Source: Escherichia coli
GTDB lineage: Bacteria; Pseudomonadota; Gammaproteobacteria; Enterobacterales; Enterobacteriaceae
DNA: 64,000 bases
Strand: one strand, 5' to 3'
Assembly: GCF_013315695.1 (NCBI RefSeq)
Contig: NZ_CP054353.1
In this document: piece by piece, positions 37,795 through 64,000 of the stretch
Numbering within the stretch: position 1 is the first letter of the stretch
How the letters are laid out: each line of letters begins with the position of its first letter
Program-made: the position numbers and the translations under genes
The notes under the pieces: generated by a model
The model's input: only the letters and a program-made list of their open reading frames with translations
Database searches by the model: none
What the model was told of the DNA's origin: nothing

Positions 37795-37850
37795 GTTGGA
37801 GTCATTACCTTCTAATTGATATGCAATTGTTTACTAAAAGTTATTAAAAA

Positions 37851-39678: not shown

Positions 39679-39894
39679 ATGAAATCCATGGATAAGTTAA
39701 CAACGGGTGTCGCCTATGGCACCTCAGCAGGTAGTGCCGGATACTGGTTTTTACAGCTGCTAGATAAAGTCACGCCCTCACAGTGGGCGGCAATTGGAGT
39801 GCTGGGTAGCCTGGTATTTGGCCTGCTGACGTACCTGACAAACCTTTATTTCAAGATTAAAGAAGATAAGCGCAAGGCTGCGAGAGGTGGATAA
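39679..39894 (+). CDS. essD: class II holin (phage-21 S21-like pinholin)
   Basis: 71 aa, two TM segments ([26 protein letters not shown]…), charged C-terminus. Confidence 0.85.
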
Positions 39895-40391: not shown

Positions 40392-40825
40392 GCAGGTTAA
40401 CCGCGATTATCTCCGCTCTGGTTATCTGCATCATCGTCTGTCTGTCATGGGCTGTTAATCATTACCGTGATAACGCCATTACCTATAAAGAACAGCGCGA
40501 TAAAGCCACGTACATCATCGCTGACATGCAGAAGCGTCAACGTGACGTAGCAGAACTCGATGCCAGATATACAAAGGAGCTTGCTGATGCTAACGCGACT
40601 ATCGAAAGTCTCCGTGCTGATGTTTCTGCTGGGCGTAAGCGCCTGCAAGTCGCCGCCACCTGTGCAAAGTCAACGACCGGAGCCAGCGGCATGGGCGATG
40701 GAGAAAGCCCAGGACTTACAGCAGATGCTGAACTCAATTATTACCGTCTCCGAAGTGGAATCGACAAGATAACCGCGCAGGTTAACTACCTGCAGGAATA
40801 CATCAGGACGCAATGCCTGAAATAA
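40376..40825 (+). CDS. rzpD: Rz-like i-spanin
   Basis: 149 aa; N-terminal TM then coiled coil; overlaps endolysin end. Confidence 0.8.
40560..40772 (+). CDS. rzoD: Rz1-like o-spanin lipoprotein embedded in the +1 frame of Rz
   Basis: Lipobox LLGVSAC followed by Pro-rich segment; fully nested in rzpD; true start probably an internal Met. Confidence 0.7.
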
Positions 40826-40886
40826 TTTTTTTGCAAATCACAAAGTCAATTTAATGAGCCTCGCGATGCGGGGCTTTTTGCAATAA

Positions 40887-40911
40887 ATGCGTACCGCAAC
40901 GCATGTTTTTT
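40887..40911 (+). terminator. weak terminator-like hairpin after the spanin genes
   Basis: ATGCGT-ACCGCA-ACGCAT followed by GTTTTTT. Confidence 0.3.
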
Positions 40912-41026
40912 ACACCGAACCTGCCCCTTTGGAATGGGCCTTTGAGGATACCAGTTAGTGCTGGCGAGCCTCGGTGGGCTGGTTTCCTGTGCGGCAAAGG
41001 TTCATTTCAAAGAGTAGGTACACGCT

Positions 41027-41524
41027 ATGAAATCATTAACCCTCTTCAATCAACCAATTCGTATCGGTGAAGATGGCATGATCTGCCTCACTGATATGTG
41101 GAAAGCCAGTGGTAAAAGTGAATCTGAATCGCCTTACCACTACCTGCGAAACAAGCAGACCAAAGAGTTCTTAGCCGAGCTGGAGAAAAACCACGAATCT
41201 GTGGTTTTTACTGAGCGCGGTGTACACGGTGGAACATATGGCGGGAAGTTTGTTGCTTACGATTATGCGGCTTGGTTAAACCCCGGGTTCAAGTACGCGG
41301 CCTATAAAGTCCTCGATGACTACTTCACCGGAGAACTTCAGCATCGCAACAGCTTAAGTGCGCAGCTCAACATGAAATGTCATGAGTTTGACCAGAAGAA
41401 AGACATGGCGAGCTTCTGCGGACAAGGGCTGGCAGCATGGCGCTATACGAAGCCAGTGTTGGTCGCTGAGATTAACTCCCTGGCTAACCAGCTGCAGATT
41501 ACGATCCCCGGGCTTCCGGGATGA
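41027..41524 (+). CDS. KilA-N domain protein (165 aa)
   Basis: N-terminal KilA-N/APSES-like signature (…ICLTDMWKASGK… ; …YDYAAWLNPGFKYA…). Confidence 0.55.
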   Translation: MKSLTLFNQPIRIGEDGMICLTDMWKASGKSESESPYHYLRNKQTKEFLAELEKNHESVVFTERGVHGGTYGGKFVAYDYAAWLNPGFKYAAYKVLDDYFTGELQHRNSLSAQLNMKCHEFDQKKDMASFCGQGLAAWRYTKPVLVAEINSLANQLQITIPGLPG

Positions 41525-41778
41525 GTGATCGTGTTATTGAATGCGCCTCCAGAGCGGGGCGCGACTTCTCAGAGTTCATGAAAGGCGAGAAGGGCATGAT
41601 GGAAGCATTGGCCTCGGTGGATGAGTTTGGCGAGCAGCTGCGCCTCAACGGCTGTGTCAATCATCACTTTGTTAGCTACATGATGCGGAACTCGATCATG
41701 CAGGCATTCATGGACATGGCAAAAGCCGAGAGGAAAGAAGAGCGCCGGCGTAAGCGAGCGGAAGCAAAAGCGAAGTAG
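41521..41778 (+). CDS. hypothetical protein (85 aa), translationally coupled to the KilA-N gene
   Basis: ATGA start/stop overlap; Lys/Arg/Glu-rich C-terminal tail. Confidence 0.4.
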   Translation: MSDRVIECASRAGRDFSEFMKGEKGMMEALASVDEFGEQLRLNGCVNHHFVSYMMRNSIMQAFMDMAKAERKEERRRKRAEAKAK

Positions 41779-42263
41779 CCATTACAAAGCCTATCTACGG
41801 GTGGGCTTGATAATGGCTTATACCCTACACGGGATAACTTAACTGATATCCCTTTTAAAGGATAAAGGTATTCAAGCCTGACACATCATGCGCTGTATCG
41901 TCGCCGTGTTCCCGTATTAACAGAGACCGTAGCCCGACGGGGAACTCCTTCTGCGCGAGTGTGCGGGAATAATCAAAAACGATGCACACCGGGGTTACCG
42001 GGTACACATATTTCATCATGCCAGCGAGTCCGGTTCTGGCACGGAAGAAACCGGACGTTATGATTTAGTGCGGAAATATTTGTGTAGTGTTCTGAATGTT
42101 CTCAGTAAAGAGTAATGAATTATCAAAGGTATAGTAATACCTTTTGTTTTCGTGGATATTTGTAATCCATCTGAAAACCCCTGCTGTAGCAAGATTTTTC
42201 CTGTATTCGTAAAATGATAACTCTCCTGATTTGAATCCTTTTAAGGTGGCTTCTATAAGGCAT

Positions 42264-42476
42264 TTATTTTTTTGAAAATCTTACATTTACAACCTTACCC
42301 TGTCCTTTTATTAAAACCGTATTATCGTTTTCAAGAACAAGATGAATATTCTCTGTGGCTAAATAGTAAATGTAATGTGAGACATTGTGACGTTTTAGTT
42401 CAGAATAAAACCAGTGATAGTTTAAATTATTTCGCACTTTATCGAATATTTGTTTAAAAATGGCAACCTGAGCCAT
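42264..42476 (-). CDS. hypothetical small protein (about 70 aa) in an AT-rich island
   Basis: Likely start at the second Met (MAQVAIF…) preceded by GGAAGG; GC content well below surroundings. Confidence 0.4.
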
Positions 42477-42533
42477 TGTAGTACCTTCCATGTGATATGA
42501 GGGGGCGTAGTCTGCACGATTATCTAGATTGCT

Positions 42534-42767
42534 TCAATCTGGTCTAACCTGTTTTCTGAGCAATTCAGTAATGTCACTCTTTTCTTTGTTTGCTTCAGGC
42601 GAAACTCTTTTTTCTGAGCACAGTCTCCGGCGGCAGGCTTCAATGACCCAGGCTGAGAAATTCCCGGACCCTTTTTGAACAAGAGCGATGTTAATTTGTT
42701 CAATCATTTGGTTAGGAAAGCGGATGTTGCGGGTTGTTGTTCTGCGGGTTCTGTTCTTCGTTGACAT
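42534..42767 (-). CDS. ribbon-helix-helix-like small DNA-binding protein (77 aa)
   Basis: Basic N-tail then beta-strand/helix pattern …RNIRFPNQMIEQINIALVQKGSGNFSAWVIEACRRRL…. Confidence 0.45.
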   Translation of the reverse strand: MSTKNRTRRTTTRNIRFPNQMIEQINIALVQKGSGNFSAWVIEACRRRLCSEKRVSPEANKEKSDITELLRKQVRPD

Positions 42768-42966
42768 GAGGTTGCCCTGTATTCAGTGTCGCTGATTTGT
42801 ATTGTCTGAAGTTGTTTTTACGTTAAGTTGATGCAGATCAATTAATACGATACCTGCGTCATAATTGATTATTTGACGTGGTTTGATGGCGTAGATGCAC
42901 GTTGTGACATGTAGATGATAATTATTATCATTTTTCGGGTCCTTTCCGGCGATCCGACAGGTTACG

Positions 42967-42978
42967 GGGCGGCGACCT
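42967..42978. other. cosN cohesive-end site of the lambda-like packaging module
   Basis: …CGACAGGTTACG|GGGCGGCGACCT|CGCGGGTTTTCGCTATTTATGAAAATTTTCCGG… matches the remembered lambda end sequences; Nu1 starts 178 bp downstream. Confidence 0.8.
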
Positions 42979-43155
42979 CGCGGGTTTTCGCTATTTATGA
43001 AAATTTTCCGGTTTAAGGCGTTTCCGTTCTTCTTCGTCGTAACTTAATGTTTTTATTTAAAATACCCCCTGAAAAGAAAGGAAACGACAGGTGCTGAAAG
43101 CGAGCTTTTTGGCCTCTGTCGTTTCCTTTCTCTGTTTTTGTCCGTGGAATGAGCA

Positions 43156-43675
43156 ATGGAAGTCAACAAAAAGCAGCTGGCTGACATTTTCGGTGCGAGT
43201 ATCCGTACCATTCAGAACTGGCAGGAACAGGGAATGCCCGTTCTGCGAGGCGGTGGCAAGGGTAATGAGGTGCTTTATGACTCTGCCGCCGTCATAAAAT
43301 GGTATGCCGAAAGGGATGCTGAAATTGAGAACGAAAAGCTGCGCCGGGAGGTTGAAGAACTGCGGCAGGCCAGCGAGGCAGATCTCCAGCCAGGGACTAT
43401 TGAGTACGAACGCCACCGACTTACGCGTGCGCAGGCCGACGCACAGGAACTGAAGAATGCCAGAGACTCCGCTGAAGTGGTGGAAACCGCATTCTGTACT
43501 TTCGTGTTGTCGCGGATCGCAGGTGAAATTGCCAGTATTCTCGACGGGATCCCCCTGTCGGTGCAGCGGCGTTTTCCGGAACTGGAAAACCGACATGTTG
43601 ATTTCCTGAAACGGGATATCATCAAAGCCATGAACAAAGCAGCCGCGCTGGATGAACTGATACCGGGGTTGCTGA

Positions 43676-43701
<26 letters not shown>
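43156..43701 (+). CDS. nu1: terminase small subunit
   Basis: 181 aa, near-identical to remembered lambda Nu1 (MEVNKKQLADIFGASIRTIQNWQEQGMPVLRGGGKGNEVLYD…). Confidence 0.95.
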
Positions 43702-47382
<3,681 letters not shown>

Positions 47383-47402
<20 letters not shown>

Positions 47403-48702
47403 TCTCCCGCATATTACCAGTATGGCCTTTAATGAGCCGCTGATGCTTGAACCCGCCTATGCGCGGGTTTTCTTTTGTGCGCTTGCAGGCCAGCTTGGGA
47501 TCAGCCGCCTGACGGATGCGGTATCCGGCGACAGCCTGACTGCCGGAGAGGCACCCGCGGCGCTGGCGTTATCCGTTGATGATGACGGACCACGGCAGGC
47601 CCGCAGTTATCAGGTCATGAACGGCATCGCCGTGCTGCCGGTGTCCGGCACGCTGGTCAGCCGGACGCGGGCGCTGCAGCCGTATTCGGGGATGACCGGT
47701 TACAACGGCATTATCGCCCGTCTGCAACAGGCTGCCAGCGACCCGATGGTGGACGGCATTCTGCTCGATATGGATACGCCAGGCGGGATGGTGGCAGGGG
47801 CATTTGACTGCGCTGACATCATCGCCCGTGTGCGTGACATAAAGCCGGTATGGGCGCTGGCCAATGACATGAACTGCAGCGCAGGTCAGCTGCTTGCCAG
47901 TGCCGCCTCCCGGCGTCTGGTCACGCAGACCGCCCGGACAGGCTCCATCGGCGTCATGATGGCTCACAGTAATTACGGTGCTGCGCTGGAGAAACAGGGC
48001 GTGGAAATCACGCTGATTTACAGCGGCAGCCATAAGGTGGATGGCAACCCCTACAGCCATCTTCCGGATGACGTCCGGGAGACACTGCAGTCCCGGATGG
48101 ATGCAACCCGCCGGATGTTTGCGCAGAAGGTGTCGGCATATACCGGCCTGTCCGTGCAGGCTGTGCTGGATACCGAGGCTGCAGTGTACAGCGGTCAGGA
48201 GGCCATTGATGCCGGACTGGCTGATGAACTTGTTAACAGCACCGATGCGATCACCGTCATGCGTGATGCACTGGATGCACGTAAATCCCGTCTCTCAGGA
48301 GGGCGAATGACCAAAGAGACTCAATCAACAACTGTTTCAGCCACCGCTTCGCAGGCTGACGTTACTGACGTGGTGCAAGCGACGGAGGGCGAAAACGCCA
48401 GCGCGGCGCAGCCGGACGTGAACACGCAGATCACCGCAGCGGTTGCGGCAGAAAACAGCCGCATTATGGGGATCCTCAACTGTGAGGAGGCTCACGGACG
48501 CGAAGAACAGGCGCGCGTGCTGGCAGAAACCCCCGGAATGACCGTGGAAACGGCCCGCCGCATTCTGGCCGCAGCACCACAGAGTGCACAGGCGCGCAGT
48601 GACACTGCGCTGGATCGTCTGATGCAGGGTGCACCGGCACCACTGGCTGCAGGTAACCCGGCATCTGATGCCGTTAACGATTTGCTGAACACACCAGTGT
48701 AA
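47383..48702 (+). CDS. C: prohead protease/scaffold C (GTG start), with nested in-frame Nu3 scaffold in the 3' part
   Basis: 439 aa from (V)TAELRNLPHI; ClpP-like protease motifs; RBS GAGGAGGAG upstream. Confidence 0.9.
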
Positions 48703-48711
48703 GGGATGTTT

Positions 48712-49044
48712 ATGACGAGCAAAGAAACCTTTACCCATTACCAGCCGCTGGGCAACAGTGACCCGGCTCATACCGCAACCGCGCCCGGCGGATTGAGTGC
48801 GAAAGCGCCTGCAATGACTCCGCTGATGCTTGACACCGCCACCCGTAAGCTGGTTGCGTGGGATGGCACCACCGACGGTGCTGCCGTTGGCATTCTGGCT
48901 GTTGCAGCTGACCAGACCAGCACCACGCTGACGTTCTACAAGTCCGGCACGTTCCGTTATGAGGATGTGCTCTGGCCGGAGGCTGCCAGCGACGAGACGA
49001 AAAAACGGACCGCGTTTGCCGGAACGGCAATCAGCATCGTTTAA
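48712..49044 (+). CDS. D: head decoration protein D
   Basis: 110 aa ([27 protein letters not shown]…). Confidence 0.95.
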
Positions 49045-49099
49045 CTTTACCCTTCATCACTAAAGGCCGCCTGTGCGGCTTTTTTTACGGGATTTTTTT

Positions 49100-50125
49100 A
49101 TGTCGATGTACACAACCGCCCAGCTGCTGGCGGCAAATGAGCAGAAATTTAAGTTTGATCCGCTGTTTCTGCGTCTCTTTTTCCGTGAGAGCTATCCCTT
49201 CACCACGGAGAAAGTCTATCTCTCACAAATTCCGGGACTGGTAAACATGGCGCTGTACGTTTCGCCGATTGTTTCCGGTGAGGTTATCCGCTCCCGTGGC
49301 GGCTCCACCTCTGAATTTACACCGGGATATGTCAAGCCGAAGCATGAGGTGAATCCGCAGATGACCCTGCGTCGCCTGCCGGATGAAGATCCGCAGAATC
49401 TGGCGGACCCGGCTTACCGCCGCCGTCGCATCATCATGCAGAACATGCGTGACGAAGAGCTGGCCATTGCTCAGGTCGAAGAGATGCAGGCCGTTTCTGC
49501 CGTGCTTAAGGGCAAATACACCATGACCGGTGAAGCCTTCGATCCGGTTGAGGTGGATATGGGCCGCAGTGCGGCGAATAACATCACGCAGTCCGGCGGC
49601 ACGGAGTGGAGCAAGCGTGACAAGTCCACGTATGACCCGACCGACGATATCGAAGCCTACGCGCTGAACGCCAGCGGTGTGGTGAATATCATCGTGTTTG
49701 ATCCGAAAGGCTGGGCGCTGTTCCGTTCCTTCAAAGCCGTCAGGGAGAAGCTGGATACCCGTCGTGGCTCTCATTCCGAGCTGGAGACAGCGGTAAAAGA
49801 CCTGGGTAAAGCGGTGTCCTATAAGGGTATGTATGGCGATGTTGCCATCGTCGTGTATTCCGGACAGTACGTGGAAAACGGCGTCAAAAAGAACTTCCTG
49901 CCGGACAACACGATGGTGCTGGGGAACACTCAGGCACGCGGTCTGCGCACCTATGGTTGTATTCAGGATGCGGACGCACAGCGCGAAGGCATTAACGCCT
50001 CTGCCCGTTACCCGAAAAACTGGGTGACCACCGGCGATCCGGCACGTGAGTTCACCATGATTCAGTCAGCACCGCTGATGCTGCTGGCTGACCCTGATGA
50101 GTTCGTGTCCGTACAACTGGCGTAA
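49100..50125 (+). CDS. E: major capsid protein E
   Basis: 341 aa from MSMYTTAQLLAANEQKFKF. Confidence 0.95.
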   Translation: MSMYTTAQLLAANEQKFKFDPLFLRLFFRESYPFTTEKVYLSQIPGLVNMALYVSPIVSGEVIRSRGGSTSEFTPGYVKPKHEVNPQMTLRRLPDEDPQNLADPAYRRRRIIMQNMRDEELAIAQVEEMQAVSAVLKGKYTMTGEAFDPVEVDMGRSAANNITQSGGTEWSKRDKSTYDPTDDIEAYALNASGVVNIIVFDPKGWALFRSFKAVREKLDTRRGSHSELETAVKDLGKAVSYKGMYGDVAIVVYSGQYVENGVKKNFLPDNTMVLGNTQARGLRTYGCIQDADAQREGINASARYPKNWVTTGDPAREFTMIQSAPLMLLADPDEFVSVQLA

Positions 50126-50166
50126 TCATGGCCCTTCGGGGCCATTGTCTCTCTGTGGAGAAGTCC

Positions 50167-50562
50167 ATGACGAAAGATGAACTGATTGCCCGTCTCCGCT
50201 CGCTGGGTGAACAACTGAACCGTGATGTCAGCCTGACGGGGACGAAAGAAGAACTGGCGCTCCGTGTGGCAGAGCTGGAAGAAGAGCTTGATGACACGGG
50301 CGACACTGCCGGTCAGGATACCCCTCTCAGCCCGGAAAATGTGCTGACCGGACATGAAAATGAGGTTGTATCAGCGCAGCCGGATACCGTGACTGATACG
50401 GCTGATCTGGTCACGGTTGTGGCACTGGTGACGCTGCATACTGATGCACTTCACGCCACGCGGGATGAGGCTGTGGCATTTGTGCTGCCGGGAACGGCGT
50501 TCCGTGTCTCTGCCGGTGTGGCAGCTGAAATGACAGAGCGCGGCCTGGCCAGAATGCAATAA
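50167..50562 (+). CDS. FI: DNA-packaging protein FI
   Basis: About 131 aa from MTKDELIARLRSLGEQL. Confidence 0.9.
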   Translation: MTKDELIARLRSLGEQLNRDVSLTGTKEELALRVAELEEELDDTGDTAGQDTPLSPENVLTGHENEVVSAQPDTVTDTADLVTVVALVTLHTDALHATRDEAVAFVLPGTAFRVSAGVAAEMTERGLARMQ

Positions 50563-50573
50563 CGGGAGGCGCT

Positions 50574-50927
50574 GTGGCTGATTTCGATAACCTGTTCGAT
50601 GCTGCCATTGCCTGCGCCGATGAAACGATACGCGGGTACATGGGAACGTCAGCCACCATGACATCCGGTGAGCAGTCCGGTGCTGTGATACGTGGTGTTT
50701 TTGATGACCCTGAAAATATCAGCTATGCCGGACAGGGCGTGCGCGTTGAAGGCTCCAGCCCGTCCCTGTTTGTCCGGACTGATGATGTGCGGCAACTGCG
50801 GCGTGGAGACACGCTGACCATCGGTGAGGAAAACTTCTGGATAGATCGTGTTTCGCCGGATGATGGCGGAAGCTGTCATCTCTGGCTTGGGCGGGGCGTA
50901 CCGCCTGCCGTTAACCGTCGCCGCTGA
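50574..50927 (+). CDS. FII: head-tail connector FII (GTG start)
   Basis: 117 aa (M)ADFDNLFDAAIA…. Confidence 0.9.
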   Translation: MADFDNLFDAAIACADETIRGYMGTSATMTSGEQSGAVIRGVFDDPENISYAGQGVRVEGSSPSLFVRTDDVRQLRRGDTLTIGEENFWIDRVSPDDGGSCHLWLGRGVPPAVNRRR

Positions 50928-50938
50928 AAGGGGGATGT

Positions 50939-51517
50939 ATGGCCATAAAAGGTCTTGAGCAGGCCGTTGAAAACCTCAGCCGTATCAGCAAAACGGCGGT
51001 TCCCGGTGCCGCCGCAATGGCCATTAACCGCGTTGCGTCATCCGCGATATCGCAGTCGGCGTCACAGGTTGCCCGTGAGACAAAGGTACGCCGGAAACTG
51101 GTAAAGGAAAGGGCCAGGCTGAAAAGGGCCACGGTCAAAAATCCGCAGGCCAGAATCAAAGTTAACCGGGGGGATTTGCCCGTAATCAAGCTGGGTAATG
51201 CGCGGGTTGTCCTGTCCCGCCGCAGGCGTCGTAAAAAGGGGCAGCGTTCATCCCTGAAAGGTGGCGGCAGCGTGCTTGTGGTGGGTAACCGTCGTATTCC
51301 CGGCGCGTTTATTCAGCAACTGAAAAATGGCCGGTGGCATGTTATGCAGCGTGTGGCCGGGAAAAACCGTTACCCCATTGATGTGGTGAAAATCCCGATG
51401 GCGGTGCCGCTGACCACGGCGTTTAAACAGAATATTGAACGGATACGGCGTGAACGTCTTCCGAAAGAGCTGGGCTATGCGCTGCAGCATCAACTGAGAA
51501 TGGTAATAAAGCGATGA
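50939..51517 (+). CDS. Z: tail completion protein Z
   Basis: 192 aa. Confidence 0.9.
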   Translation: MAIKGLEQAVENLSRISKTAVPGAAAMAINRVASSAISQSASQVARETKVRRKLVKERARLKRATVKNPQARIKVNRGDLPVIKLGNARVVLSRRRRRKKGQRSSLKGGGSVLVVGNRRIPGAFIQQLKNGRWHVMQRVAGKNRYPIDVVKIPMAVPLTTAFKQNIERIRRERLPKELGYALQHQLRMVIKR

Positions 51518-51909
51518 AACATACTGAACTCCGTGCAGCCGTACTGGATGCACTGGAGAAGCATGACACCGGGGCGACGCTTTTTGATGGTCGCCCCGCT
51601 GTTTTTGATGAGGAAGATTTTCCGGCAATTGCCGTTTATCTCACCGGCGCTGAATACACGGGCGAAGAGCTGGACAGCGATACCTGGCAGGCGGAGCTGC
51701 ATATTGAAGTTTTCCTGCCTGCTCAGGTGCCGGATTCAGAGCTGGATTCGTGGATGGAGTCCCGGATTTATCCGGTGATGAGCGATATCCCGGCACTGTC
51801 AGATTTGATCACCAGTATGGTGGCCAGTGGCTATGACTACCGGCGCGACGATGATGCGGGCCTGTGGAGTTCAGCCGATCTGACTTATGTCATTACCTAT
51901 GAAATGTGA
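51514..51909 (+). CDS. U: tail terminator protein U
   Basis: 131 aa. Confidence 0.9.
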
Positions 51910-51916
51910 GGACGCT

Positions 51917-52657
51917 ATGCCTGTACCAAATCCTGTAATGCCGGTGAAAGGTGCCGGGACCACCCTGTGGGTTTATAAGGGGAGCGGTGACCCTTATGCG
52001 AACCCGCTTTCAGACGTTGACTGGTCGCGTCTGGCAAAAGTTAAAGACCTGACGCCCGGCGAACTGACCGCTGAGTCCTATGACGACAGTTATCTCGATG
52101 ATGAGGATGCGGACTGGACTGCGACCGGGCAGGGGCAGAAATCAGCCGGAGATACCAGCTTCACGCTGGCGTGGATGCCCGGAGAGCAGGGGCAGCAGGC
52201 GCTGCTGGCGTGGTTTAATGAAGGTGATACCCGTGCCTATAAAATCCGCTTCCTGAACGGCACGGTCGATGTGTTCCGTGGCTGGGTCAGCAGCATCGGT
52301 AAGGCGGTGACGGCAAAGGAAGTGATCACCCGTACGGTGAAGGTCACCAATGTGGGTCGTCCGTCAATGGCAGAAGAACACAGTACGGTGACGGCGGCAA
52401 CCGGTATGACCGTGACGCCAGCCAGCGCTTCCGTAGTGAAAGGGAAGAGCACCACGCTGACCGTGGCCTTCCAGCCGGAAGGCGCAACCGACAAGAGCTT
52501 CCGTGCGGTGTCAGCGGATAAAACAAAAGCTACCGTGTCGGTCAGTGGTATGACCATCACCGTGAATGGCGTTGCTGCAGGTAAGGTCAACATTCCGGTC
52601 GTATCCGGTAATGGTGAGTTTGCTGCGGTTGCAGAAATTACCGTCACCGCCAGTTAA
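51917..52657 (+). CDS. V: major tail tube protein V
   Basis: 246 aa from [22 protein letters not shown]; C-terminal Ig-like region. Confidence 0.95.
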
Positions 52658-52672
52658 TCCGGAGAGTCAGCG

Positions 52673-53095
52673 ATGTTCCTGAAAACCGAATCATTTGAAC
52701 ATAACGGTGTGACCGTCACGCTTTCTGAACTGTCAGCCCTGCAGCGCATTGAGCATCTCGCCCTGATGAAACGGCAGGCAGAACAGGCGGAGTCAGACAG
52801 CAACCGGAAGTTTACTGTGGAAGACGCCATCAGAACCGGCGCGTTTCTGGTGGCGATGTCCCTGTGGCATAACCATCCGCAGAAGACGCAGATGCCGTCC
52901 ATGAATGAAGCCGTTAAACAGATTGAGCAGGAAGTGCTTACCACCTGGCCCACGGAGGCAATTTCTCATGCTGAAAACGTGGTGTACCGGCTGTCTGGTA
53001 TGTATGAGTTTGTGGTGAATAATGCCCCTGAACAGACAGAGGACGCCGGGCCCGCAGAGCCTGTTTCTGCGGGAAAGTGTTCGACGGTGAGCTGA
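52673..53095 (+). CDS. G: tail assembly chaperone G
   Basis: 140 aa; ends just after slippery heptamer GGGAAAG (53071..53077). Confidence 0.9.
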   Translation: MFLKTESFEHNGVTVTLSELSALQRIEHLALMKRQAEQAESDSNRKFTVEDAIRTGAFLVAMSLWHNHPQKTQMPSMNEAVKQIEQEVLTTWPTEAISHAENVVYRLSGMYEFVVNNAPEQTEDAGPAEPVSAGKCSTVS

Positions 53096-53511
53096 GTTTT
53101 GCCCTGAAACTGGCGCGTGAGATGGGGCGACCCGACTGGCGTGCCATGCTTGCCGGGATGTCATCCACGGAGTATGCCGACTGGCACCGCTTTTACAGTA
53201 CCCATTATTTTCATGATGTTCTGCTGGATATGCACTTTTCCGGGCTGACGTACACCGTGCTCAGCCTGTTTTTCAGCGATCCGGATATGCATCCGCTGGA
53301 TTTCAGTCTGCTGAACCGGCGCGAGGCTGACGAAGAGCCTGAAGATGATGTGCTGATGCAGAAAGCGGCAGGGCTTGCCGGAGGTGTCCGCTTTGGCCCG
53401 GACGGGAATGAAGTTATCCCCGCTTCCCCGGATGTGGCGGACATGACGGAGGATGACGTAATGCTGATGACAGTATCAGAAGGGATCGCAGGAGGAGTCC
53501 GGTATGGCTGA
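53077..53511 (+). CDS. T: T segment of the G-T tail assembly chaperone, expressed by programmed -1 frameshift from G
   Basis: ORF in the -1 frame begins at the slippery site and runs to the start of H. Confidence 0.85.
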   Translation: MFDGELSFALKLAREMGRPDWRAMLAGMSSTEYADWHRFYSTHYFHDVLLDMHFSGLTYTVLSLFFSDPDMHPLDFSLLNRREADEEPEDDVLMQKAAGLAGGVRFGPDGNEVIPASPDVADMTEDDVMLMTVSEGIAGGVRYG

Positions 53512-56065
53512 ACCGGTAGGCGATCTGGTCGTTGATTTGAGTCTGGATGCGGCCAGATTTGACGAGCAGATGGCCAGAGTCAGGCGTCATTTTTCCGGTA
53601 CGGAAAGTGATGCGAAAAAAACAGCGGCAGTCGTTGAACAGTCGCTGAGCCGACAGGCGCTGGCTGCACAGAAAGCGGGGATTTCCGTCGGGCAGTATAA
53701 AGCCGCCATGCGTATGCTGCCTGCACAGTTCACCGACGTGGCCACGCAGCTTGCCGGCGGGCAAAGTCCGTGGCTGATCCTGCTGCAACAGGGGGGGCAG
53801 GTGAAGGACTCCTTCGGCGGGATGATCCCCATGTTCAGGGGGCTTGCCGGTGCGATCACCCTGCCGATGGTGGGGGCCACCTCGCTGGCGGTGGCGACCG
53901 GTGCGCTGGCGTATGCCTGGTATCAGGGCAACTCAACCCTGTCCGATTTCAACAAAACGCTGGTCCTTTCCGGCAATCAGGCGGGACTGACGGCAGATCG
54001 TATGCTGGTCCTGTCCAGAGCCGGGCAGGCGGCAGGGCTGACGTTTAACCAGACCAGCGAGTCACTCAGCGCACTGGTTAAGGCGGGGGTAAGCGGTGAG
54101 GCTCAGATTGCGTCCATCAGCCAGAGTGTGGCGCGTTTCTCCTCTGCATCCGGCGTGGAGGTGGACAAGGTCGCTGAAGCCTTCGGGAAGCTGACCACAG
54201 ACCCGACGTCGGGGCTGACGGCGATGGCACGCCAGTTCCATAACGTGACGGCGGAGCAGATTGCGTATGTTGCTCAGTTGCAGCGTTCCGGCGATGAAGC
54301 CGGGGCATTGCAGGCGGCGAACGAGGCCGCAACGAAAGGGTTTGATGACCAGACCCGCCGCCTGAAAGAGAACATGGGCACGCTGGAGACCTGGGCAGAC
54401 AGGACAGCGCGGGCATTCAAATCCATGTGGGATGCGGTGCTGGATATTGGTCGTCCTGATACCGCGCAGGAGATGCTGATTAAGGCAGAGGCTGCGTTTA
54501 AGAAAGCAGACGACATCTGGAATCTGCGCAAGGATGATTATTTTGTTAACGATGAAGCGCGGGCGCGTTACTGGGATGATCGTGAAAAGGCCCGTCTTGC
54601 GCTTGAAGCCGCCCGAAAGAAGGCTGAGCAGCAGACTCAACAGGACAAAAATGCGCAGCAGCAGAGCGATACCGAAGCGTCACGGCTGAAATATACCGAA
54701 GAGGCGCAGAAGGCTTACGAACGGCTGCAGACGCCGCTGGAGAAATATACCGCCCGTCAGGAAGAACTGAACAAGGCACTGAAAGACGGGAAAATCCTGC
54801 AGGCGGATTACAACACGCTGATGGCGGCGGCGAAAAAGGATTATGAAGCGACGCTGAAAAAGCCGAAACAGTCCGGCGTGAAGGTGTCTGCGGGCGATCG
54901 TCAGGAAGACAGTGCTCATGCTGCCCTGCTGACGCTTCAGGCAGAACTCCGGACGCTGGAGAAGCATGCCGGAGCAAATGAGAAAATCAGCCAGCAGCGC
55001 CGGGATTTGTGGAAGGCGGAGAGTCAGTTCGCGGTACTGGAGGAGGCGGCGCAACGTCGCCAGCTGTCTGCACAGGAGAAATCCCTGCTGGCGCATAAAG
55101 ATGAGACGCTGGAGTACAAACGCCAGCTGGCTGCACTTGGCGACAAGGTTACGTATCAGGAGCGCCTGAACGCGCTGGCGCAGCAGGCGGATAAATTCGC
55201 ACAGCAGCAACGGGCAAAACGGGCCGCCATTGATGCGAAAAGCCGGGGGCTGACTGACCGGCAGGCAGAACGGGAAGCCACGGAACAGCGCCTGAAGGAA
55301 CAGTATGGCGATAATCCGCTGGCGCTGAATAACGTCATGTCAGAGCAGAAAAAGACCTGGGCGGCTGAAGACCAGCTTCGCGGGAACTGGATGGCAGGCC
55401 TGAAGTCCGGCTGGAGTGAGTGGGAAGAGAGCGCCACGGACAGTATGTCGCAGGTAAAAAGTGCAGCCACGCAGACCTTTGATGGTATTGCACAGAATAT
55501 GGCGGCGATGCTGACCGGCAGTGAGCAGAACTGGCGCAGCTTCACCCGTTCCGTGCTGTCCATGATGACAGAAATTCTGCTTAAGCAGGCAATGGTGGGG
55601 ATTGTCGGGAGTATCGGCAGCGCCATTGGCGGGGCTGTTGGTGGCGGCGCATCCGCGTCAGGCGGTACAGCCATTCAGGCCGCTGCGGCGAAATTCCATT
55701 TTGCAACCGGAGGATTTACGGGAACCGGCGGCAAATATGAGCCAGCGGGGATTGTTCACCGTGGTGAGTTTGTCTTCACGAAGGAGGCAACCAGCCGGAT
55801 TGGCGTGGGGAATCTTTACCGGCTGATGCGCGGCTATGCCACCGGCGGTTATGTCGGTACACCGGGCAGCATGGCAGACAGCCGGTCGCAGGCGTCCGGG
55901 ACGTTTGAGCAGAATAACCATGTGGTGATTAACAACGACGGCACGAACGGGCAGATAGGTCCGGCTGCTCTGAAGGCGGTGTATGACATGGCCCGCAAGG
56001 GTGCCCGTGATGAAATTCAGACACAGATGCGTGATGGTGGCCTGTTCTCCGGAGGTGGACGATGA
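53504..56065 (+). CDS. H: tail tape measure protein H
   Basis: 853 aa, coiled-coil rich, Gly-rich C-terminal region. Confidence 0.95.
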   Translation: MAEPVGDLVVDLSLDAARFDEQMARVRRHFSGTESDAKKTAAVVEQSLSRQALAAQKAGISVGQYKAAMRMLPAQFTDVATQLAGGQSPWLILLQQGGQVKDSFGGMIPMFRGLAGAITLPMVGATSLAVATGALAYAWYQGNSTLSDFNKTLVLSGNQAGLTADRMLVLSRAGQAAGLTFNQTSESLSALVKAGVSGEAQIASISQSVARFSSASGVEVDKVAEAFGKLTTDPTSGLTAMARQFHNVTAEQIAYVAQLQRSGDEAGALQAANEAATKGFDDQTRRLKENMGTLETWADRTARAFKSMWDAVLDIGRPDTAQEMLIKAEAAFKKADDIWNLRKDDYFVNDEARARYWDDREKARLALEAARKKAEQQTQQDKNAQQQSDTEASRLKYTEEAQKAYERLQTPLEKYTARQEELNKALKDGKILQADYNTLMAAAKKDYEATLKKPKQSGVKVSAGDRQEDSAHAALLTLQAELRTLEKHAGANEKISQQRRDLWKAESQFAVLEEAAQRRQLSAQEKSLLAHKDETLEYKRQLAALGDKVTYQERLNALAQQADKFAQQQRAKRAAIDAKSRGLTDRQAEREATEQRLKEQYGDNPLALNNVMSEQKKTWAAEDQLRGNWMAGLKSGWSEWEESATDSMSQVKSAATQTFDGIAQNMAAMLTGSEQNWRSFTRSVLSMMTEILLKQAMVGIVGSIGSAIGGAVGGGASASGGTAIQAAAAKFHFATGGFTGTGGKYEPAGIVHRGEFVFTKEATSRIGVGNLYRLMRGYATGGYVGTPGSMADSRSQASGTFEQNNHVVINNDGTNGQIGPAALKAVYDMARKGARDEIQTQMRDGGLFSGGGR

Positions 56066-56391
56066 AGACCTTCCGCTGGAAAGTGAAACCAGGTATGGAT
56101 GTGGCTTCGGTCCCTTCTGTAAGAAAGGTGCGCTTTGGTGATGGCTATTCTCAGCGAGCGCCTGCCGGGCTGAATGCCAACCTGAAAACGTACAGCGTGA
56201 CGCTTTCTGTCCCCCGTGAGGAGGCCACGGTACTGGAGTCGTTTCTGGAAGAGCACGGGGGCTGGAAATCCTTTCTGTGGACGCCGCCTTATGAGTGGCG
56301 GCAGATAAAGGTGACCTGCGCAAAATGGTCGTCGCGGGTCAGTATGCTGCGTGTTGAGTTCAGCGCAGAGTTTGAACAGGTGGTGAACTGA
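56062..56391 (+). CDS. M: tail tip protein M
   Basis: 109 aa. Confidence 0.9.
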   Translation: MKTFRWKVKPGMDVASVPSVRKVRFGDGYSQRAPAGLNANLKTYSVTLSVPREEATVLESFLEEHGGWKSFLWTPPYEWRQIKVTCAKWSSRVSMLRVEFSAEFEQVVN

Positions 56392-57089
56392 TGCAGGATA
56401 TCCGGCAGGAAACACTGAATGAATGCACCCGTGCGGAGCAGTCGGCCAGCGTGGTGCTCTGGGAAATCGACCTGACAGAGGTCGGTGGAGAACGTTATTT
56501 TTTCTGTAATGAGCAGAACGAAAAAGGTGAGCCGGTCACCTGGCAGGGGCGACAGTATCAGCCGTATCCCATTCAGGGGAGCGGTTTTGAACTGAATGGC
56601 AAAGGCACCAGTACGCGCCCCACGCTGACGGTTTCTAACCTGTACGGTATGGTCACCGGGATGGCGGAAGATATGCAGAGTCTGGTCGGCGGAACGGTGG
56701 TCCGGCGTAAGGTTTACGCCCGTTTTCTGGATGCGGTGAACTTCGTCAACGGAAACAGTTACGCCGATCCGGAGCAGGAGGTGATCAGCCGCTGGCGCAT
56801 TGAGCAGTGCAGCGAACTGAGCGCGGTGAGTGCCTCCTTTGTACTGTCCACGCCGACGGAAACGGATGGCGCTGTTTTTCCGGGACGTATCATGCTGGCC
56901 AACACCTGCACCTGGACCTATCGCGGTGACGAGTGCGGTTATAGCGGTCCGGCTGTCGCGGATGAATATGACCAGCCAACGTCCGATATCACGAAGGATA
57001 AATGCAGCAAATGCCTGAGCGGTTGTAAGTTCCGCAATAACGTCGGCAACTTTGGCGGCTTCCTTTCCATTAACAAACTTTCGCAGTAA
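56391..57089 (+). CDS. L: tail tip protein L
   Basis: 232 aa; C-terminal Cys cluster. Confidence 0.9.
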   Translation: MQDIRQETLNECTRAEQSASVVLWEIDLTEVGGERYFFCNEQNEKGEPVTWQGRQYQPYPIQGSGFELNGKGTSTRPTLTVSNLYGMVTGMAEDMQSLVGGTVVRRKVYARFLDAVNFVNGNSYADPEQEVISRWRIEQCSELSAVSASFVLSTPTETDGAVFPGRIMLANTCTWTYRGDECGYSGPAVADEYDQPTSDITKDKCSKCLSGCKFRNNVGNFGGFLSINKLSQ

Positions 57090-57094
57090 ATCCC

Positions 57095-57838
57095 ATGACA
57101 CAGACAGAATCAGCGATTCTGGCGCACGCCCGGCGATGTGCGCCAGCGGAGTCGTGCGGCTTCGTGGTAAGCACGCCGGAGGGGGAAAGATATTTCCCCT
57201 GCGTGAATATCTCCGGTGAGCCGGAGGCGTATTTCCGTATGTCGCCGGAAGACTGGCTGCAGGCAGAAATGCAGGGTGAGATTGTGGCGCTGGTCCACAG
57301 CCACCCCGGTGGCCTGCCCTGGCTGAGTGAGGCCGACCGGCGGCTGCAGGTGCAGAGTGATTTGCCGTGGTGGCTGGTCTGCCGGGGGACGATTCATAAG
57401 TTCCGCTGTGTGCCGCATCTCACCGGGCGGCGCTTTGAGCACGGTGTGACGGACTGTTACACACTGTTCCGGGATGCTTATCATCTGGCGGGGATTGAGA
57501 TGCCGGACTTTCATCGTGAGGATGACTGGTGGCGTAACGGCCAGAATCTCTATCTGGATAATCTGGAGGCGACGGGGCTGTATCAGGTGCCGTTGTCAGC
57601 GGCACAGCCGGGCGATGTGCTGCTGTGCTGTTTTGGTTCATCGGTGCCGAATCACGCCGCAATTTACTGCGGCGACGGCGAGCTGCTGCACCATATTCCT
57701 GAACAACTGAGCAAACGAGAGAGGTACACCGACAAATGGCAGCGACGCACACACTCCCTCTGGCGTCACCGGGCATGGCGCGCATCTGCCTTTACGGGGA
57801 TTTACAACGATTTGGTCGCCGCATCGACCTTCGTGTGA
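57095..57838 (+). CDS. K: tail tip assembly protein K (MPN/JAB plus NlpC/P60-like); 3' end as in ORF track, overlaps I
   Basis: HSHPGG JAMM-like motif; Cys/His NlpC/P60-like residues. Confidence 0.8.
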   Translation: MTQTESAILAHARRCAPAESCGFVVSTPEGERYFPCVNISGEPEAYFRMSPEDWLQAEMQGEIVALVHSHPGGLPWLSEADRRLQVQSDLPWWLVCRGTIHKFRCVPHLTGRRFEHGVTDCYTLFRDAYHLAGIEMPDFHREDDWWRNGQNLYLDNLEATGLYQVPLSAAQPGDVLLCCFGSSVPNHAAIYCGDGELLHHIPEQLSKRERYTDKWQRRTHSLWRHRAWRASAFTGIYNDLVAASTFV

Positions 57839-58407
57839 AAACGGGGGCTGAAGCCATCCGGGCACTGGCCACACAGCTCCCGGCGTTTCGTCAGAAACTG
57901 AGCGACGGCTGGTATCAGGTACGGATTGCCGGGCGGGACGTCAGCACGTCCGGGTTAACGGCGCAGTTACATGAGACTCTGCCTGATGGCGCTGTGATTC
58001 ATATTGTTCCCAGAGTCGCCGGGGCCAAGTCAGGTGGCGTATTCCAGATTGTCCTGGGGGCTGCCGCCATTGCCGGATCATTCTTTACCGCCGGAGCCAC
58101 CCTTGCAGCATGGGGGGCAGCCATTGGGGCCGGTGGTATGACCGGCATCCTGTTTTCTCTCGGTGCCAGTATGGTGCTCGGTGGTGTGGCGCAGATGCTG
58201 GCACCGAAAGCCAGAACTCCCCGTACACAGACAACGGATAACGGTAAGCAGAACACCTATTTCTCCTCACTGGATAACATGGTTGCCCAGGGCAATGTTC
58301 TGCCTGTTCTGTACGGGGAAATGCGCGTGGGGTCACGCGTGGTTTCTCAGGAGATCAGCACGGCAGACGAAGGGGACGGTGGTCAGGTTGTGGTGATTGG
58401 TCGCTGA
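57736..58407 (+). CDS. I: tail tip assembly protein I
   Basis: 223 aa (MAATHTLPLASPGMARICLYG…). Confidence 0.9.
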   Translation: MAATHTLPLASPGMARICLYGDLQRFGRRIDLRVKTGAEAIRALATQLPAFRQKLSDGWYQVRIAGRDVSTSGLTAQLHETLPDGAVIHIVPRVAGAKSGGVFQIVLGAAAIAGSFFTAGATLAAWGAAIGAGGMTGILFSLGASMVLGGVAQMLAPKARTPRTQTTDNGKQNTYFSSLDNMVAQGNVLPVLYGEMRVGSRVVSQEISTADEGDGGQVVVIGR

Positions 58408-58467
58408 TGCAAAATGTTTTATGTGAAACCGCCTGCGGGCGGTTTTGTCATTTATGGAGCGTGAGGA

Positions 58468-61400
58468 ATGGGTAAAGGAAGCAGTAAGGGGCATACCCCG
58501 CGCGAAGCGAAGGACAACCTGAAGTCCACGCAGTTGCTGAGTGTGATCGATGCCATCAGCGAAGGGCCGGTTGAAGGTCCGGTGGATGGATTAAAAAGCG
58601 TGCTGCTGAACAGTACGCCGGTGCTGGACACTGAGGGGAATACCAACATCTCCGGTGTCACGGTGGTGTTCCGTGCCGGTGAGCAGGAGCAGACACCGCC
58701 GGAGGGGTTTGAATCCTCCGGCTCCGAGACGGTGCTGGGTACGGAAGTGAAATATGACACGCCGATCACCCGCACCATTACGTCTGCAAACATCGACCGT
58801 CTGCGCTTTACCTTCGGTGTACAGGCACTGGTGGAAACCACCTCAAAGGGTGACAGGAATCCGTCGGAAGTCCGTCTGCTGGTTCAGATACAACGTAACG
58901 GTGGCTGGGTGACGGAAAAAGACATCACCATTAAGGGCAAAACCACCTCGCAGTATCTGGCCTCGGTGGTGGTGGGTAACCTGCCGCCGCGCCCGTTTAA
59001 TATCCGGATGCGCAGGATGACGCCGGACAGCACCACAGACCAGCTGCAGAACAAAACGCTCTGGTCGTCATACACCGAAATCATCGATGTGAAACAGTGC
59101 TACCCGAACACGGCACTGGTCGGCGTGCAGGTGGACTCGGAGCAGTTCGGCAGCCAGCAGGTGAGCCGTAATTATCATCTTCGCGGGCGCATTCTGCAGG
59201 TGCCGTCGAACTATAACCCGCAGACGCGGCAATACAGCGGTATCTGGGACGGAACGTTTAAGCCGGCATACAGCAACAACCCGGCCTGGTGTCTGTGGGA
59301 TATGCTGACCCACCCGCGCTACGGCATGGGGAAACGTCTTGGTGCGGCGGATGTGGATAAATGGGCGCTGTATGTCATCGGCCAGTACTGCGACCAGTCA
59401 GTGCCGGACGGTTTTGGCGGCACGGAGCCGCGCATCACCTGTAATGCCTGGCTGACCACGCAGCGTAAGGCGTGGGATGTGCTCAGTGATTTCTGCTCGG
59501 CGATGCGCTGTATGCCGGTATGGAACGGGCAGACGCTGACGTTCGTGCAGGACCGACCATCAGATAAGGTGTGGACCTATAACCGCAGTAATGTGGTGAT
59601 GCCGGATGATGGCGCGCCGTTCCGCTACAGCTTCAGCGCCCTGAAGGACCGCCATAATGCCGTTGAGGTGAACTGGATTGACCCGAACAACGGCTGGGAG
59701 ACGGCGACAGAGCTTGTTGAAGATACGCAGGCCATTGTCCGTTACGGTCGTAATGTCACGAAGATGGATGCCTTTGGCTGTACCAGCCGGGGGCAGGCAC
59801 ACCGCGCCGGGCTGTGGCTGATTAAAACTGAACTGCTGGAGACGCAGACCGTGGATTTCAGCGTGGGTGCTGAAGGGCTTCGCCATGTACCGGGCGATGT
59901 CATTGAAATCTGCGATGATGACTATGCCGGTATCAGCACCGGTGGTCGCGTGCTGGCGGTGAACAGCCAGACCCGGACGCTGACGCTCGACCGTGAAATC
60001 ACGCTGCCATCCTCCGGTACCACGCTGATAAGCCTGGTTGACGGAAGTGGTAATCCGGTCAGCGTGGAGGTTCAGTCCGTCACCGACGGACTTAAGGTGA
60101 AAGTGAACCGGGTTCCTGACGGCGTTGCAGAATACAGTGTGTGGGGGCTGAAGTTGCCGACGTTGCGTCAGCGCCTGTTCCGCTGTGTGAGTATCCGTGA
60201 GAACGATGACGGCACGTATGCCATCACTGCCGTGCAGCATGTACCGGAAAAAGAAGCCATCGTGGATAACGGGGCGCACTTTGACGGCGACCAGAGCGGC
60301 ACGGTGAATGGTGTCACGCCGCCAGCGGTGCAGCACCTGACCGCCGAAGTCACCGCAGACAGCGGGGAATATCAGGTGCTGGCGCGCTGGGACACGCCGA
60401 AGGTGGTGAAGGGCGTGAGCTTCCTGCTCCGTCTGACCGTAACAGCGGATGACGGCAGTGAGCGGCTGGTCAGCACGGCCCGGACGACGGAAACCACATA
60501 CCGCTTCACGCAACTGGCGCTGGGGAACTACAGACTGACAGTCCGGGCGGTAAATGCGTGGGGGCAGCAGGGCGATCCGGCGTCGGTATCGTTCCGGATT
60601 GCCGCACCGGCAGCACCGTCGAGGATTGAGCTGACGCCGGGCTATTTTCAGATAACCGCCACGCCGCATCTTGCCGTTTATGACCCGACGGTACAGTTTG
60701 AGTTCTGGTTCTCGGAAAAGCGGATTACCGATATCAGGCAGGTTGAAACCACAGCCCGCTATCTTGGTACGGCGCTGTACTGGATAGCCGCCAGTATCAA
60801 TATCAAACCGGGCCATGATTATTACTTTTATATCCGCAGTGTGAACACCGTTGGCAAATCGGCATTCGTGGAGGCTGTCGGTCAGGCGAGCGATGATGCG
60901 GAAGGTTACCTGGATTTTTTCAAAGGCCAGATAACCGAATCCCATCTCGGCAAGGAGCTGCTGGAAAAAGTCGAGCTGACGGAGGATAACGCCAGCAGAC
61001 TGGAGGAGTTTTCGAAAGAGTGGCAGGACGCTAACGATAAGTGGAATGCCATGTGGGGCGTCAAAATTGAGCAGACCAAAGACGGCAAACATTATGTCGC
61101 GGGTATTGGCCTCAGCATGGAGGACACGGAAGAAGGCAAGCTGAGCCAGTTTCTGGTTGCCGCTAACCGTATCGCGTTTATTGACCCGGCAAACGGGAAT
61201 GAAACGCCGATGTTTGTGGCGCAGGGCAATCAGATATTTATGAACGACGTGTTCCTGAAGCGCCTGACGGCCCCGACCATTACCAGTGGTGGAAATCCAC
61301 CGGCATTTTCCCTGACATCAGACGGAAAGCTGACCGCTAAAAATGCGGATATCAGTGGCAGAGTGAATGCGAACGCCGGGACGCTCAACAATGTCACGGT

Positions 61401-61881
61401 AAATGAAAACTGTACGATTAAGGGCATGCTGGAGGCGACTCAGGTCAGAGGTGACTTCGTTAAAGCTGTATCCAAATCATTCCCGAAACAGGCTGGTACG
61501 TGGGGTAACACGGAAACACCAAACGGGACGGTTACAGTCACCATCAGCGATGATCATAACTTTGACCGTCAAATCATTATTCCGCCCATTATCTTTAACG
61601 GAATAGCGTATAGCGATCCGGGAAGTGGTAATAACCCGGGAGGTACAAGATACACGGGTTATGGTTTTGAAGTTCGCAAAAACGGTGTATTAATCGCATC
61701 CAGAGAAACTAAAGGGGCCATTCCCGGTAGCTACAGTGCGGTTATTGATATGCCGAGTGGCAGGGGAAGCGTCACTCTGGAGTTTAAGGTTTTCCATAAA
61801 GGCAATCAGTGGGCAGGTAATATCACCGACTGTACGGTGATTGTGACCAAAAAAGCCGCTTCCGGCATCAGTATTCGTTGA
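58468..61881 (+). CDS. J: central tail fibre/host specificity protein J
   Basis: 1137 aa; lambda J-like over most of its length, divergent C-terminal receptor-binding part. Confidence 0.93.
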
Positions 61882-61950
61882 AATTGTTATAACCCATATA
61901 AGGGCACCAGAAATGGTGCCTTTTTTATTGCAGAAAAGCGAGAGGTAATT

Positions 61951-62550
61951 ATGCGTAAACTTTATGCCGCCATTTTGTCCGCAGCCATTTGTCTGGCCGT
62001 ATCCGGTGCGCCTGCATGGGCATCTGAACATCAGTCCACGCTGAGCGCGGGGTATCTTCATGCCCGGACCAACGTTCCCGGCAGTGATGATCTGAACGGG
62101 ATTAACGTGAAATACCGTTATGAGTTTACGGATACGCTGGGGCTGGTGACGTCATTCAGCTATGCAGGAGACAAGAATCGCCAGCTGACCCGTTACAGCG
62201 ATACCAGCTGGCATGAAGATTCCGTGCGTAACCGCTGGTTCAGCGTGATGGCGGGGCCGTCTGTGCGCGTGAATGAATGGTTCAGCGCGTATGCGATGGC
62301 GGGTATGGCTTACAGCCGTGTTTCGACTTTTTCCGGGGATTACCTTCGCGTAACTGACAACAAGGGGAAAACGCACGATGTGCTGACCGGAAGTGATGAC
62401 GGTCGCCACAGCAACACGTCTCTGGCGTGGGGGGCTGGCGTGCAGTTTAACCCGACCGAATCCGTGGCCATTGATATTGCTTATGAAGGTTCTGGCAGTG
62501 GTGACTGGCGCACTGACGGTTTCATCGTGGGTGTCGGTTATAAATTCTGA
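61951..62550 (+). CDS. lom: Ail/Lom/OmpX-family outer-membrane protein (moron)
   Basis: 199 aa, signal peptide, C-terminal …YEGSGSGDWRTDGFIVGVGYKF. Confidence 0.85.
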   Translation: MRKLYAAILSAAICLAVSGAPAWASEHQSTLSAGYLHARTNVPGSDDLNGINVKYRYEFTDTLGLVTSFSYAGDKNRQLTRYSDTSWHEDSVRNRWFSVMAGPSVRVNEWFSAYAMAGMAYSRVSTFSGDYLRVTDNKGKTHDVLTGSDDGRHSNTSLAWGAGVQFNPTESVAIDIAYEGSGSGDWRTDGFIVGVGYKF

Positions 62551-62614
62551 TTAGCCAGGTAACACAGTGTTATGACAGCCCGCCGGTTCAGGTGGGCTTT
62601 TTTGTGGGGGGAAT

Positions 62615-64000
62615 ATGGCAGTAAAGATTTCAGGTGTACTGAAAGACGGCACAGGAAAACCGGTACAGAACTGCTCAATCCAGCTGAAAGCAAAACGTAA
62701 CAGCACCACGGTGGTAGTGAACACGCTGGCCTCAGAAAATCCGGATGAAGCCGGGCGTTACAGTATGGATGTTGAGTATGGCCAGTACAGCGTTATCCTG
62801 CTGGTTGAAGGTTTTTCGCCTTCACATGCCGGGACCATCACCGTGTATGAAGATTCTAAGCCGGGGACGCTGAATGATTTTCTCGGTGCCATGACGGAAG
62901 ATGATGTCATGCCGGAGGCATTGCGTCGTTTTGAGGAAATGGTGGAAGAAGCGGCACGCAACGCTGAAGCCGCCTCTCAGAGCGCAGCGGCGGCAAAGAA
63001 ATCCGAAACTGCAGCGGCATCATCGAAGAACGCGGCGAAAACCTCAGAAACGAATGCAGCTAATAGTGCACAGGCGGCAGCGACCTCAAAGACTGCATCG
63101 GCAAACTCCGCGACAGCAGCCAAAAAATCAGAAACCAACGCGAAAAATAGCGAGACAGCCGCAAAGACGAGCGAAACCAACGCAAAGTCCAGCCAGACGG
63201 CAGCGAAAACCAGCGAAACGAATGCCAAAGCCAGTGAAACTGCGGCAAAAAACAGCCAGGTTGCAGCAGCCCAAAGCGAGAGCGCGGCAGCCGGTTCTGC
63301 GACTTCAGCAGCTGGATCAGCAACTGCTGCGGCTAACAGCCAGAAAGCTGCGAAGACGAGTGAAACTAACGCAAAGTCCAGCCAGACGGCAGCGAAGACC
63401 AGCGAAACGAATGCCAAAGCCAGCGAAACTGCGGCGAAAAACAGTCAGGATGCAGCAGCCCAAAGCGAGAGTGCTGCAGCTGGTTCTGCAAGCGCGGCGG
63501 CTGCTTCTGCCACTGCATCAGCCAACAGTCAAAAAGCAGCAAAAACCAGTGAAACCAATGCAAAGACAAGCGAGACTGCAGCGGCGAACTCGGCGAAAGC
63601 ATCGGCAGCAAGCCAGACAGCAGCTAAAGCAAGTGAAGACGCAGCCAGAGAGTATGCAAGTCAGGCAGCAGAGCCGTATAAATATGTCTTACAGCCACTG
63701 CCTGATGTGTGGATACCGTTTAACGATTCACTGGATATGATTACGGGCTTTTCGCCGTCATATAAAAAAATTGTTATTGGTGATGATGAAATAACGATGC
63801 CTGGCGACAAGGTTGTTAAGTTTAAACGCGCATCAACTGCCACATATATCAATAAATCAGGCGTATTTAGTGTTGCTAAAATTGATGAGCCACGATTTGA
63901 AAAAGAAGGTTTATTGATTGAAGGACAGCGCACTAACTATTTTGTTAAATCCAATACTCCCGCTGAATGGACGAGTACCAGCAATATCGATAAAACTAAT
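62615..64000 (+). CDS. stf: side tail fibre protein, 5' portion (continues beyond window)
   Basis: Open frame from MAVKISGVLKDGTGKPVQNCSIQLKAKRN with no stop before the window end; repetitive (S/T)ETNAK(A/S/T) shaft repeats. Confidence 0.85.
   Translation, partial: MAVKISGVLKDGTGKPVQNCSIQLKAKRNSTTVVVNTLASENPDEAGRYSMDVEYGQYSVILLVEGFSPSHAGTITVYEDSKPGTLNDFLGAMTEDDVMPEALRRFEEMVEEAARNAEAASQSAAAAKKSETAAASSKNAAKTSETNAANSAQAAATSKTASANSATAAKKSETNAKNSETAAKTSETNAKSSQTAAKTSETNAKASETAAKNSQVAAAQSESAAAGSATSAAGSATAAANSQKAAKTSETNAKSSQTAAKTSETNAKASETAAKNSQDAAAQSESAAAGSASAAAASATASANSQKAAKTSETNAKTSETAAANSAKASAASQTAAKASEDAAREYASQAAEPYKYVLQPLPDVWIPFNDSLDMITGFSPSYKKIVIGDDEITMPGDKVVKFKRASTATYINKSGVFSVAKIDEPRFEKEGLLIEGQRTNYFVKSNTPAEWTSTSNIDKTN

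Follow-up and report, generated by a model that had tools for sequence, protein, structure and literature searches.

The 3′ end of gene J in the stretch of Escherichia coli DNA analysed here (64,000 nucleotides, hereafter the window) encodes a receptor-binding domain (RBD) of the phage 434 type, which is carried on a J body common to lambda and 434. This combination is already known. We put the probability at about 85% that the protein is best described as this J body joined near residue 964 to a 434-type RBD, with a porin as receptor that is most probably OmpC and not LamB, as judged from sequence likeness to phages of known receptor use.

The J gene and the limit of its likeness to lambda

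Gene J, encoding the tip attachment protein or central tail fibre, lies at 58468..61881 on the plus strand and is an intact open reading frame of 1137 amino acids in the ORF list and its translation. The product is named 'phage attachment tail tip protein J' in RefSeq (WP_016235924.1). The gene is the last of the M-L-K-I-J series and is followed by lom and stf, which is the position of gpJ, and the RefSeq annotation concurs. Over its whole length the protein is 89% identical to lambda J, while 434 J differs from it at 25 of the 1137 residues. Both J peptides quoted in an earlier note on this DNA are found in this reading frame, and the lambda J C-terminus that was given there for comparison (MPAGRGNVILTFTLTSTRHSADIPPYTFASDVQVMVIKKQALGISVV) matches J02459 exactly.

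Identity to lambda differs sharply between two parts of the protein. Residues 1-964 (58468..61359, plus strand) comprise the hub, FNIII, helical shaft and most of the central straight fibre, domain names being those of PMC11101478, and it is through this part that homology to gpJ covers all of these domains. There are 21 amino acid differences from lambda in this part (97.8% identity) and 14 from 434; at the DNA level identity to lambda is 87-100% per 100-nt block and mostly at least 93%. The earlier description of J as near-lambda for most of its length thus holds. Residues 965-1137 with the stop codon (61360..61881, plus strand) form the 434-type receptor-binding module, in which codons 965-985 are a transition and the RBD proper comes after them. 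Here only 72 of 179 aligned columns are identical to lambda (40%), and the contrast in identity between the two parts is highly significant (Fisher exact p = 2.6e-79). The density of DNA mismatches to lambda climbs from about codon 965 and is saturated by about codon 985. The C-terminal divergence claimed in the earlier note is therefore real, but it covers about 170 residues instead of the last 100-140, and it starts at about 61360, some 100 nt upstream of the proposed 61468. Beyond J the divergence from lambda takes in the intergenic region and the greater part of lom, ending at about 62470.

The surrounding late region is of the same lambda/434 type. The cos site and the head and tail operon from Nu1 to I (42967..58467, plus strand) contain only intact ORFs, with sizes matching those of lambda. 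DNA identity to lambda 1..18474 is 98.1% over 42967..61437, and the segment between cos and the beginning of stf (42967..62967) is collinear with 434 (OL657226) 1..20004 at 97.3%. Just 3′ of J a consensus scan detected a terminator-like hairpin with a T-run (61900..61923, plus strand); the 434 record has a terminator annotated at the collinear position 18940..18966. The lom gene (61951..62550, plus strand; 199 aa), encoding an Ail/Lom outer-membrane beta-barrel protein, has 46% amino acid identity to lambda Lom and 96.5% nucleotide identity to 434 lom. Of the next gene, stf (side tail fibre), the window contains the 5′ part (62616..64000, plus strand), and the gene runs off its end; the collinear RefSeq annotation is 'prophage tail fiber N-terminal domain-containing protein'. 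It begins with a lambda/434-like N-terminal domain, 87% identical to lambda orf-401 up to 62964, and continues with Ala/Ser/Lys-rich repeats. Direct repeats of about 189 nt each, about 84% identical to one another, occur in stf at 63146..63583.

Since the region of divergence from lambda (about 61360-62470) spans both the J terminus and most of lom, a linked cassette of J RBD and lom was considered. This was ruled out, as several J RBD types are found together with the lom type of the window, which is present in 175 phage records (434, phi330 and many Stx phages are among them). The lom gene of lambda is an outlier, like the RBD of its J protein.

The receptor-binding domain compared with other phages

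The last 161 residues of J align with those of 434 without gaps and are identical at 152 positions (94.4%); for residues 965-1137 as a whole there are 11 substitutions in 173 (93.6% identity). High identity thus extends over the entire RBD, with no indels, which identifies it as the 434 type. The J protein of 434 (OL657226, UMO75286.1), the classical h434 host-range determinant, resembles that of the window also in its length of 1137 aa and equal gene order. Relative to lambda, both proteins have a GSGNNPGG loop insertion and, close to the C-terminus, a loop that is shorter, and lom type and terminator downstream of J are alike. A difference is that 434 is a viable phage, whereas the J copy of the window belongs to an IS1-truncated prophage at argU. 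Sequences fully identical to the last 161 residues are present in Ayreon, in PhiR49_1 and in many O157:H7 Stx1a/Stx2c phages. In PhiR49_1 the DNA of the J 3′ end is also 100% identical to the window, whereas Ayreon, in spite of the shared RBD, is only about 89% identical over the tail region and has different head genes. The J RBD allele is a product of the usual swapping of modules between lambdoid prophages.

The LamB-binding gpJ of lambda (P03749; PDB 8iyk, 8xck, 8xcj) occupies the same place in the tail operon, but its RBD (residues ~977-1132) is only 39% identical to that of the window and differs from it by several indels, which are loop insertions and deletions. The alignment proposed in the earlier note as a check on whether the C-terminus might be lambda-identical after all thus gives 39-40% identity to lambda, with 434 (94%) as the nearest J protein of known receptor. 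Other J proteins with known receptors are also distant. The RBDs of gpJ A8 (9wca; 9wcb with OmpC) and phi330 J belong to the same domain family and fold, and by sequence gpJ A8 is the closest solved structure (E 1.2e-33), yet at 46-47% identity to the window RBD they represent a separate RBD type, with 96% identity to each other. The gpJ 1A2 chimera is joined at lambda residue 964, a junction as in the window J, but its RBD is of the 'WLVNNWYPT' type and 45% identical to that of the window. The window RBD is not among the engineered gpJ chimeras A8 and 1A2: both have RBDs of other types, and its DNA motifs do not occur in the supplement of PMC11338833. Fragments retrieved in a homologue search with the RBD carry Pfam PF12421.

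An AlphaFold2 model of residues 958-1137, calculated as a monomer from an alignment of just 17 sequences, has a mean pLDDT of 79.5. The top Foldseek matches to this model were 9wcb, 8xck, 9wca and 8xcj, with E values of about 1e-16 and TM scores of 0.69-0.71. These entries represent A8 gpJ with OmpC (9wcb), the closed form of lambda gpJ (8xck) and lambda gpJ with LamB (8xcj); for the lambda gpJ RBD the values were E 1.6e-16 and TM 0.71. The predicted structure is a C-terminal beta-sandwich folded like the gpJ RBDs of known structure.

Receptor specificity

In three papers that cite this at second hand (PMC3509688, PMC11101478, PMC12502783) phage 434 is described as infecting via OmpC, and introduction of the 434 fibre gene into lambda as causing binding to OmpC in place of LamB. 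The J proteins of lambda and 434 differ almost only in the C-terminal part, so receptor specificity must map there. Brodel et al. 2024 fused J C-termini from natural prophages to lambda J at residue 964 (PMC11338833). Delivery by chimeras A8 and 1A2 was OmpC-dependent and LamB-independent, and phage phi330 was found to require ompC (PMC12502783). The exchange of J C-termini that was suggested as an experiment in the earlier note is thus a classical one for 434 and was carried out with other natural J C-termini in 2024 (PMC11338833). The non-lambda natural J RBD types tested to date all use OmpC (PMC11338833, PMC12502783).

With 94% RBD identity to the OmpC-using 434 and 39% to lambda, the sequence comparison supports the earlier proposal of a different receptor specificity on a lambda-type tail. 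The receptor of lambda is LamB, while for the window J OmpC would be expected. For the exact sub-allele of the window OmpC binding is predicted from its 94% identity to 434; a literature search for the receptor of PhiR49_1 and ECOR13 phages, Ayreon, and the O157 Stx1a/Stx2c phages returned none. The database records name E. coli K12 as host of Ayreon and ECOR13 as host of PhiR49_1. Because the identical 161-residue RBD occurs in phages whose records give an E. coli host, the domain is functional.

By analogy with the lambda and A8 gpJ structures, three copies of the C-terminal beta-sandwich would come together as the tip at the far end of the central tail fibre. The RBD loops would then dock into an outer-membrane porin trimer, most probably OmpC, and this binding would trigger opening of the tail.

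In the 434-type RBD family, variation is concentrated at residues 1049, 1099, 1108, 1110 and 1115 (about 61612..61812 in the window), as found from the alignment diversity in a search of representative proteins. Of the last 161 residues, 9 differ between the window and 434, and among these are S1049 (Asp in 434), R1099 (Gly) and W1115 (Arg), which are polymorphic within the family and located in or beside predicted loops when the sites are placed on the AlphaFold2 model through its DSSP string. At position 1115 most cluster representatives have Gly. The S1049/R1099/W1115 sub-allele is common to the window and the O157 Stx1a/Stx2c phages. The polymorphic RBD positions may mark contact loops that are adapted to particular OmpC alleles. 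Related gpJ variants discriminate among OmpC variants, gpJ 1A2 for example using EDL933 OmpC but not MG1655 OmpC (PMC11338833), so the range of OmpC alleles accepted by the window sub-allele may differ from that of 434. A more specific proposal is that the loop positions act as a code for fine-tuning to porin alleles and that the sub-allele recognizes other natural OmpC variants than 434 does, or an Lc/NmpC-type porin; we regard this as speculative and rather doubtful.

Loop substitutions might also have shifted the 434-type RBD away from K-12 OmpC altogether, to OmpF, LamB, an Lc/NmpC-type porin like that encoded by the prophage itself, or a narrow subset of OmpC proteins that does not include the K-12 form. 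The differences from 434 at the polymorphic positions 1049, 1099 and 1115 could be read in this way. Single J mutations gave phage 21 first OmpC and then OmpF as added receptors (PMC11336670), and gpJ 1A2 fails with MG1655 OmpC although it uses the EDL933 form. However, identity to 434 is 94% throughout the RBD, the tested non-lambda natural types are all OmpC users, and Ayreon, with a fully identical RBD, has K12 as its recorded host, which implies that this allele recognizes something on K-12. A shift of this kind is therefore considered unlikely.

State and location of the prophage

The prophage is inserted at the tRNA-Arg(tct) gene argU (34038..34114, plus strand; detected by ARAGORN and Rfam), which is the DLP12 site. 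Its left end is marked by the integrase gene intD (34130..35293, minus strand; RefSeq annotation of MSB1_4I), and past its right end ompT-envY-ybcH-nfrA are found in matching genomes. The window is 99.975% identical to E. coli MSB1_4I over 32044..44043 and 100% identical over 56000..64000; the latter segment also equals E. coli AF3 at 100%. In the chromosomal part of the window (2243..2366; 20688..20765), gathering-level Rfam matches to naRNA4 (CssrE, two copies) and ES036 (CssrF) were recorded, which are REP-type repeats and have no bearing on J.

Where the immunity, replication, nin and Q region would be expected there is an IS1 copy (37042..37809, plus strand), recognized by the IS1 terminal repeat at 37042 and annotated in RefSeq as an IS1A transposase; a second IS1 copy lies elsewhere in the window (15318..16087). 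Inspection of the flanks (35300..38010) shows that the first copy is located between a DUF2303 fragment, which adjoins yfdR-yfdT-intD, and the last ~10 nt of quuD, with a porin gene on this other side. In the related AF3 prophage the place of the IS1 is taken by a full early region with regulatory and recombination genes as well as QuuD, and collinearity resumes at position 37810 of the window. No repressor, replication genes or Q remain in the window prophage, whereas the virion genes are intact. Through these losses J is probably silent unless another lambdoid phage provides antitermination, and it is probably not expressed autonomously in this strain. The J module may instead be regarded as a reservoir, open to transactivation by a helper phage or to uptake by such a phage through recombination.

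The same losses raise the question whether the J C-terminus has any present function, or is drifting or inactive in a decaying, defective prophage. Autonomous late-gene expression is indeed improbable with the repressor, replication genes and Q lost beside IS1. Against loss of function of the J terminus itself stand the intact J ORF and the intact genes from Nu1 to I, the 100% DNA identity of the J 3′ end to the deposited phage PhiR49_1, and the form of the divergence, which is a clean module swap common to 434 and not scattered decay. We consider a functionless terminus very unlikely.

The porin gene mentioned above (38011..39090, minus strand) is of the Lc/NmpC type and is borne by the prophage, with the former Q gene on one side and the lysis genes on the other. 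Phage PA-2 uses OmpC as receptor and carries lc, which alters the porin content of the host. The prophage porin has 90.7% amino acid identity to the lc porin of PA-2 (J02580) and 100% to that of PhiR49_1, and PGAP labels it 'porin OmpC'. Its presence was considered as support for OmpC as the receptor, but this argument was discarded since the porin gene also accompanies other J RBD types (2G7b, 4A7, PhiR63_2, Turner).

Occurrence of the RBD types in E. coli

Of the 5426 complete E. coli genomes searched, 2111 have a match to the 434-type RBD family, almost all hits being at 90% DNA identity or above, and within this family 752 records reach at least 99%. Assembly or reading error (a frameshift or chimeric contig) as the origin of the difference from lambda is refuted by these 752 records and by two complete genomes, independent of each other, in which the sequence is present at 100%. 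It would also conflict with the uninterrupted J ORF and with the exact match of the lambda C-terminus given in the earlier note to J02459. The lambda-type RBD, in contrast, was found by megablast in only 98 of these 5426 genomes, every hit being at 99% identity or more. Among the lambda-type matches listed (8 of 98) are K-12 laboratory strains and BL21(DE3), and the strain of the window is absent from these eight. A search with the RBD against 1.84 billion representative proteins gave 172 hits to the domain family, in J-like proteins. It is the RBD of lambda that is the outlier, and the window carries the ordinary form.

Significance

The J C-terminal allele of the window is the known h434 or OmpC type and not a novelty. 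That host range in lambdoid phages is based on swapping of the J C-terminus is textbook knowledge, and the present case has little significance as a discovery. Its use is in annotation: from its likeness to 434, OmpC and not LamB is the predicted receptor for particles built from the tail module of the window. The rarity of the LamB-binding tip of lambda bears on the choice of J module for engineered lambda-based delivery vehicles.
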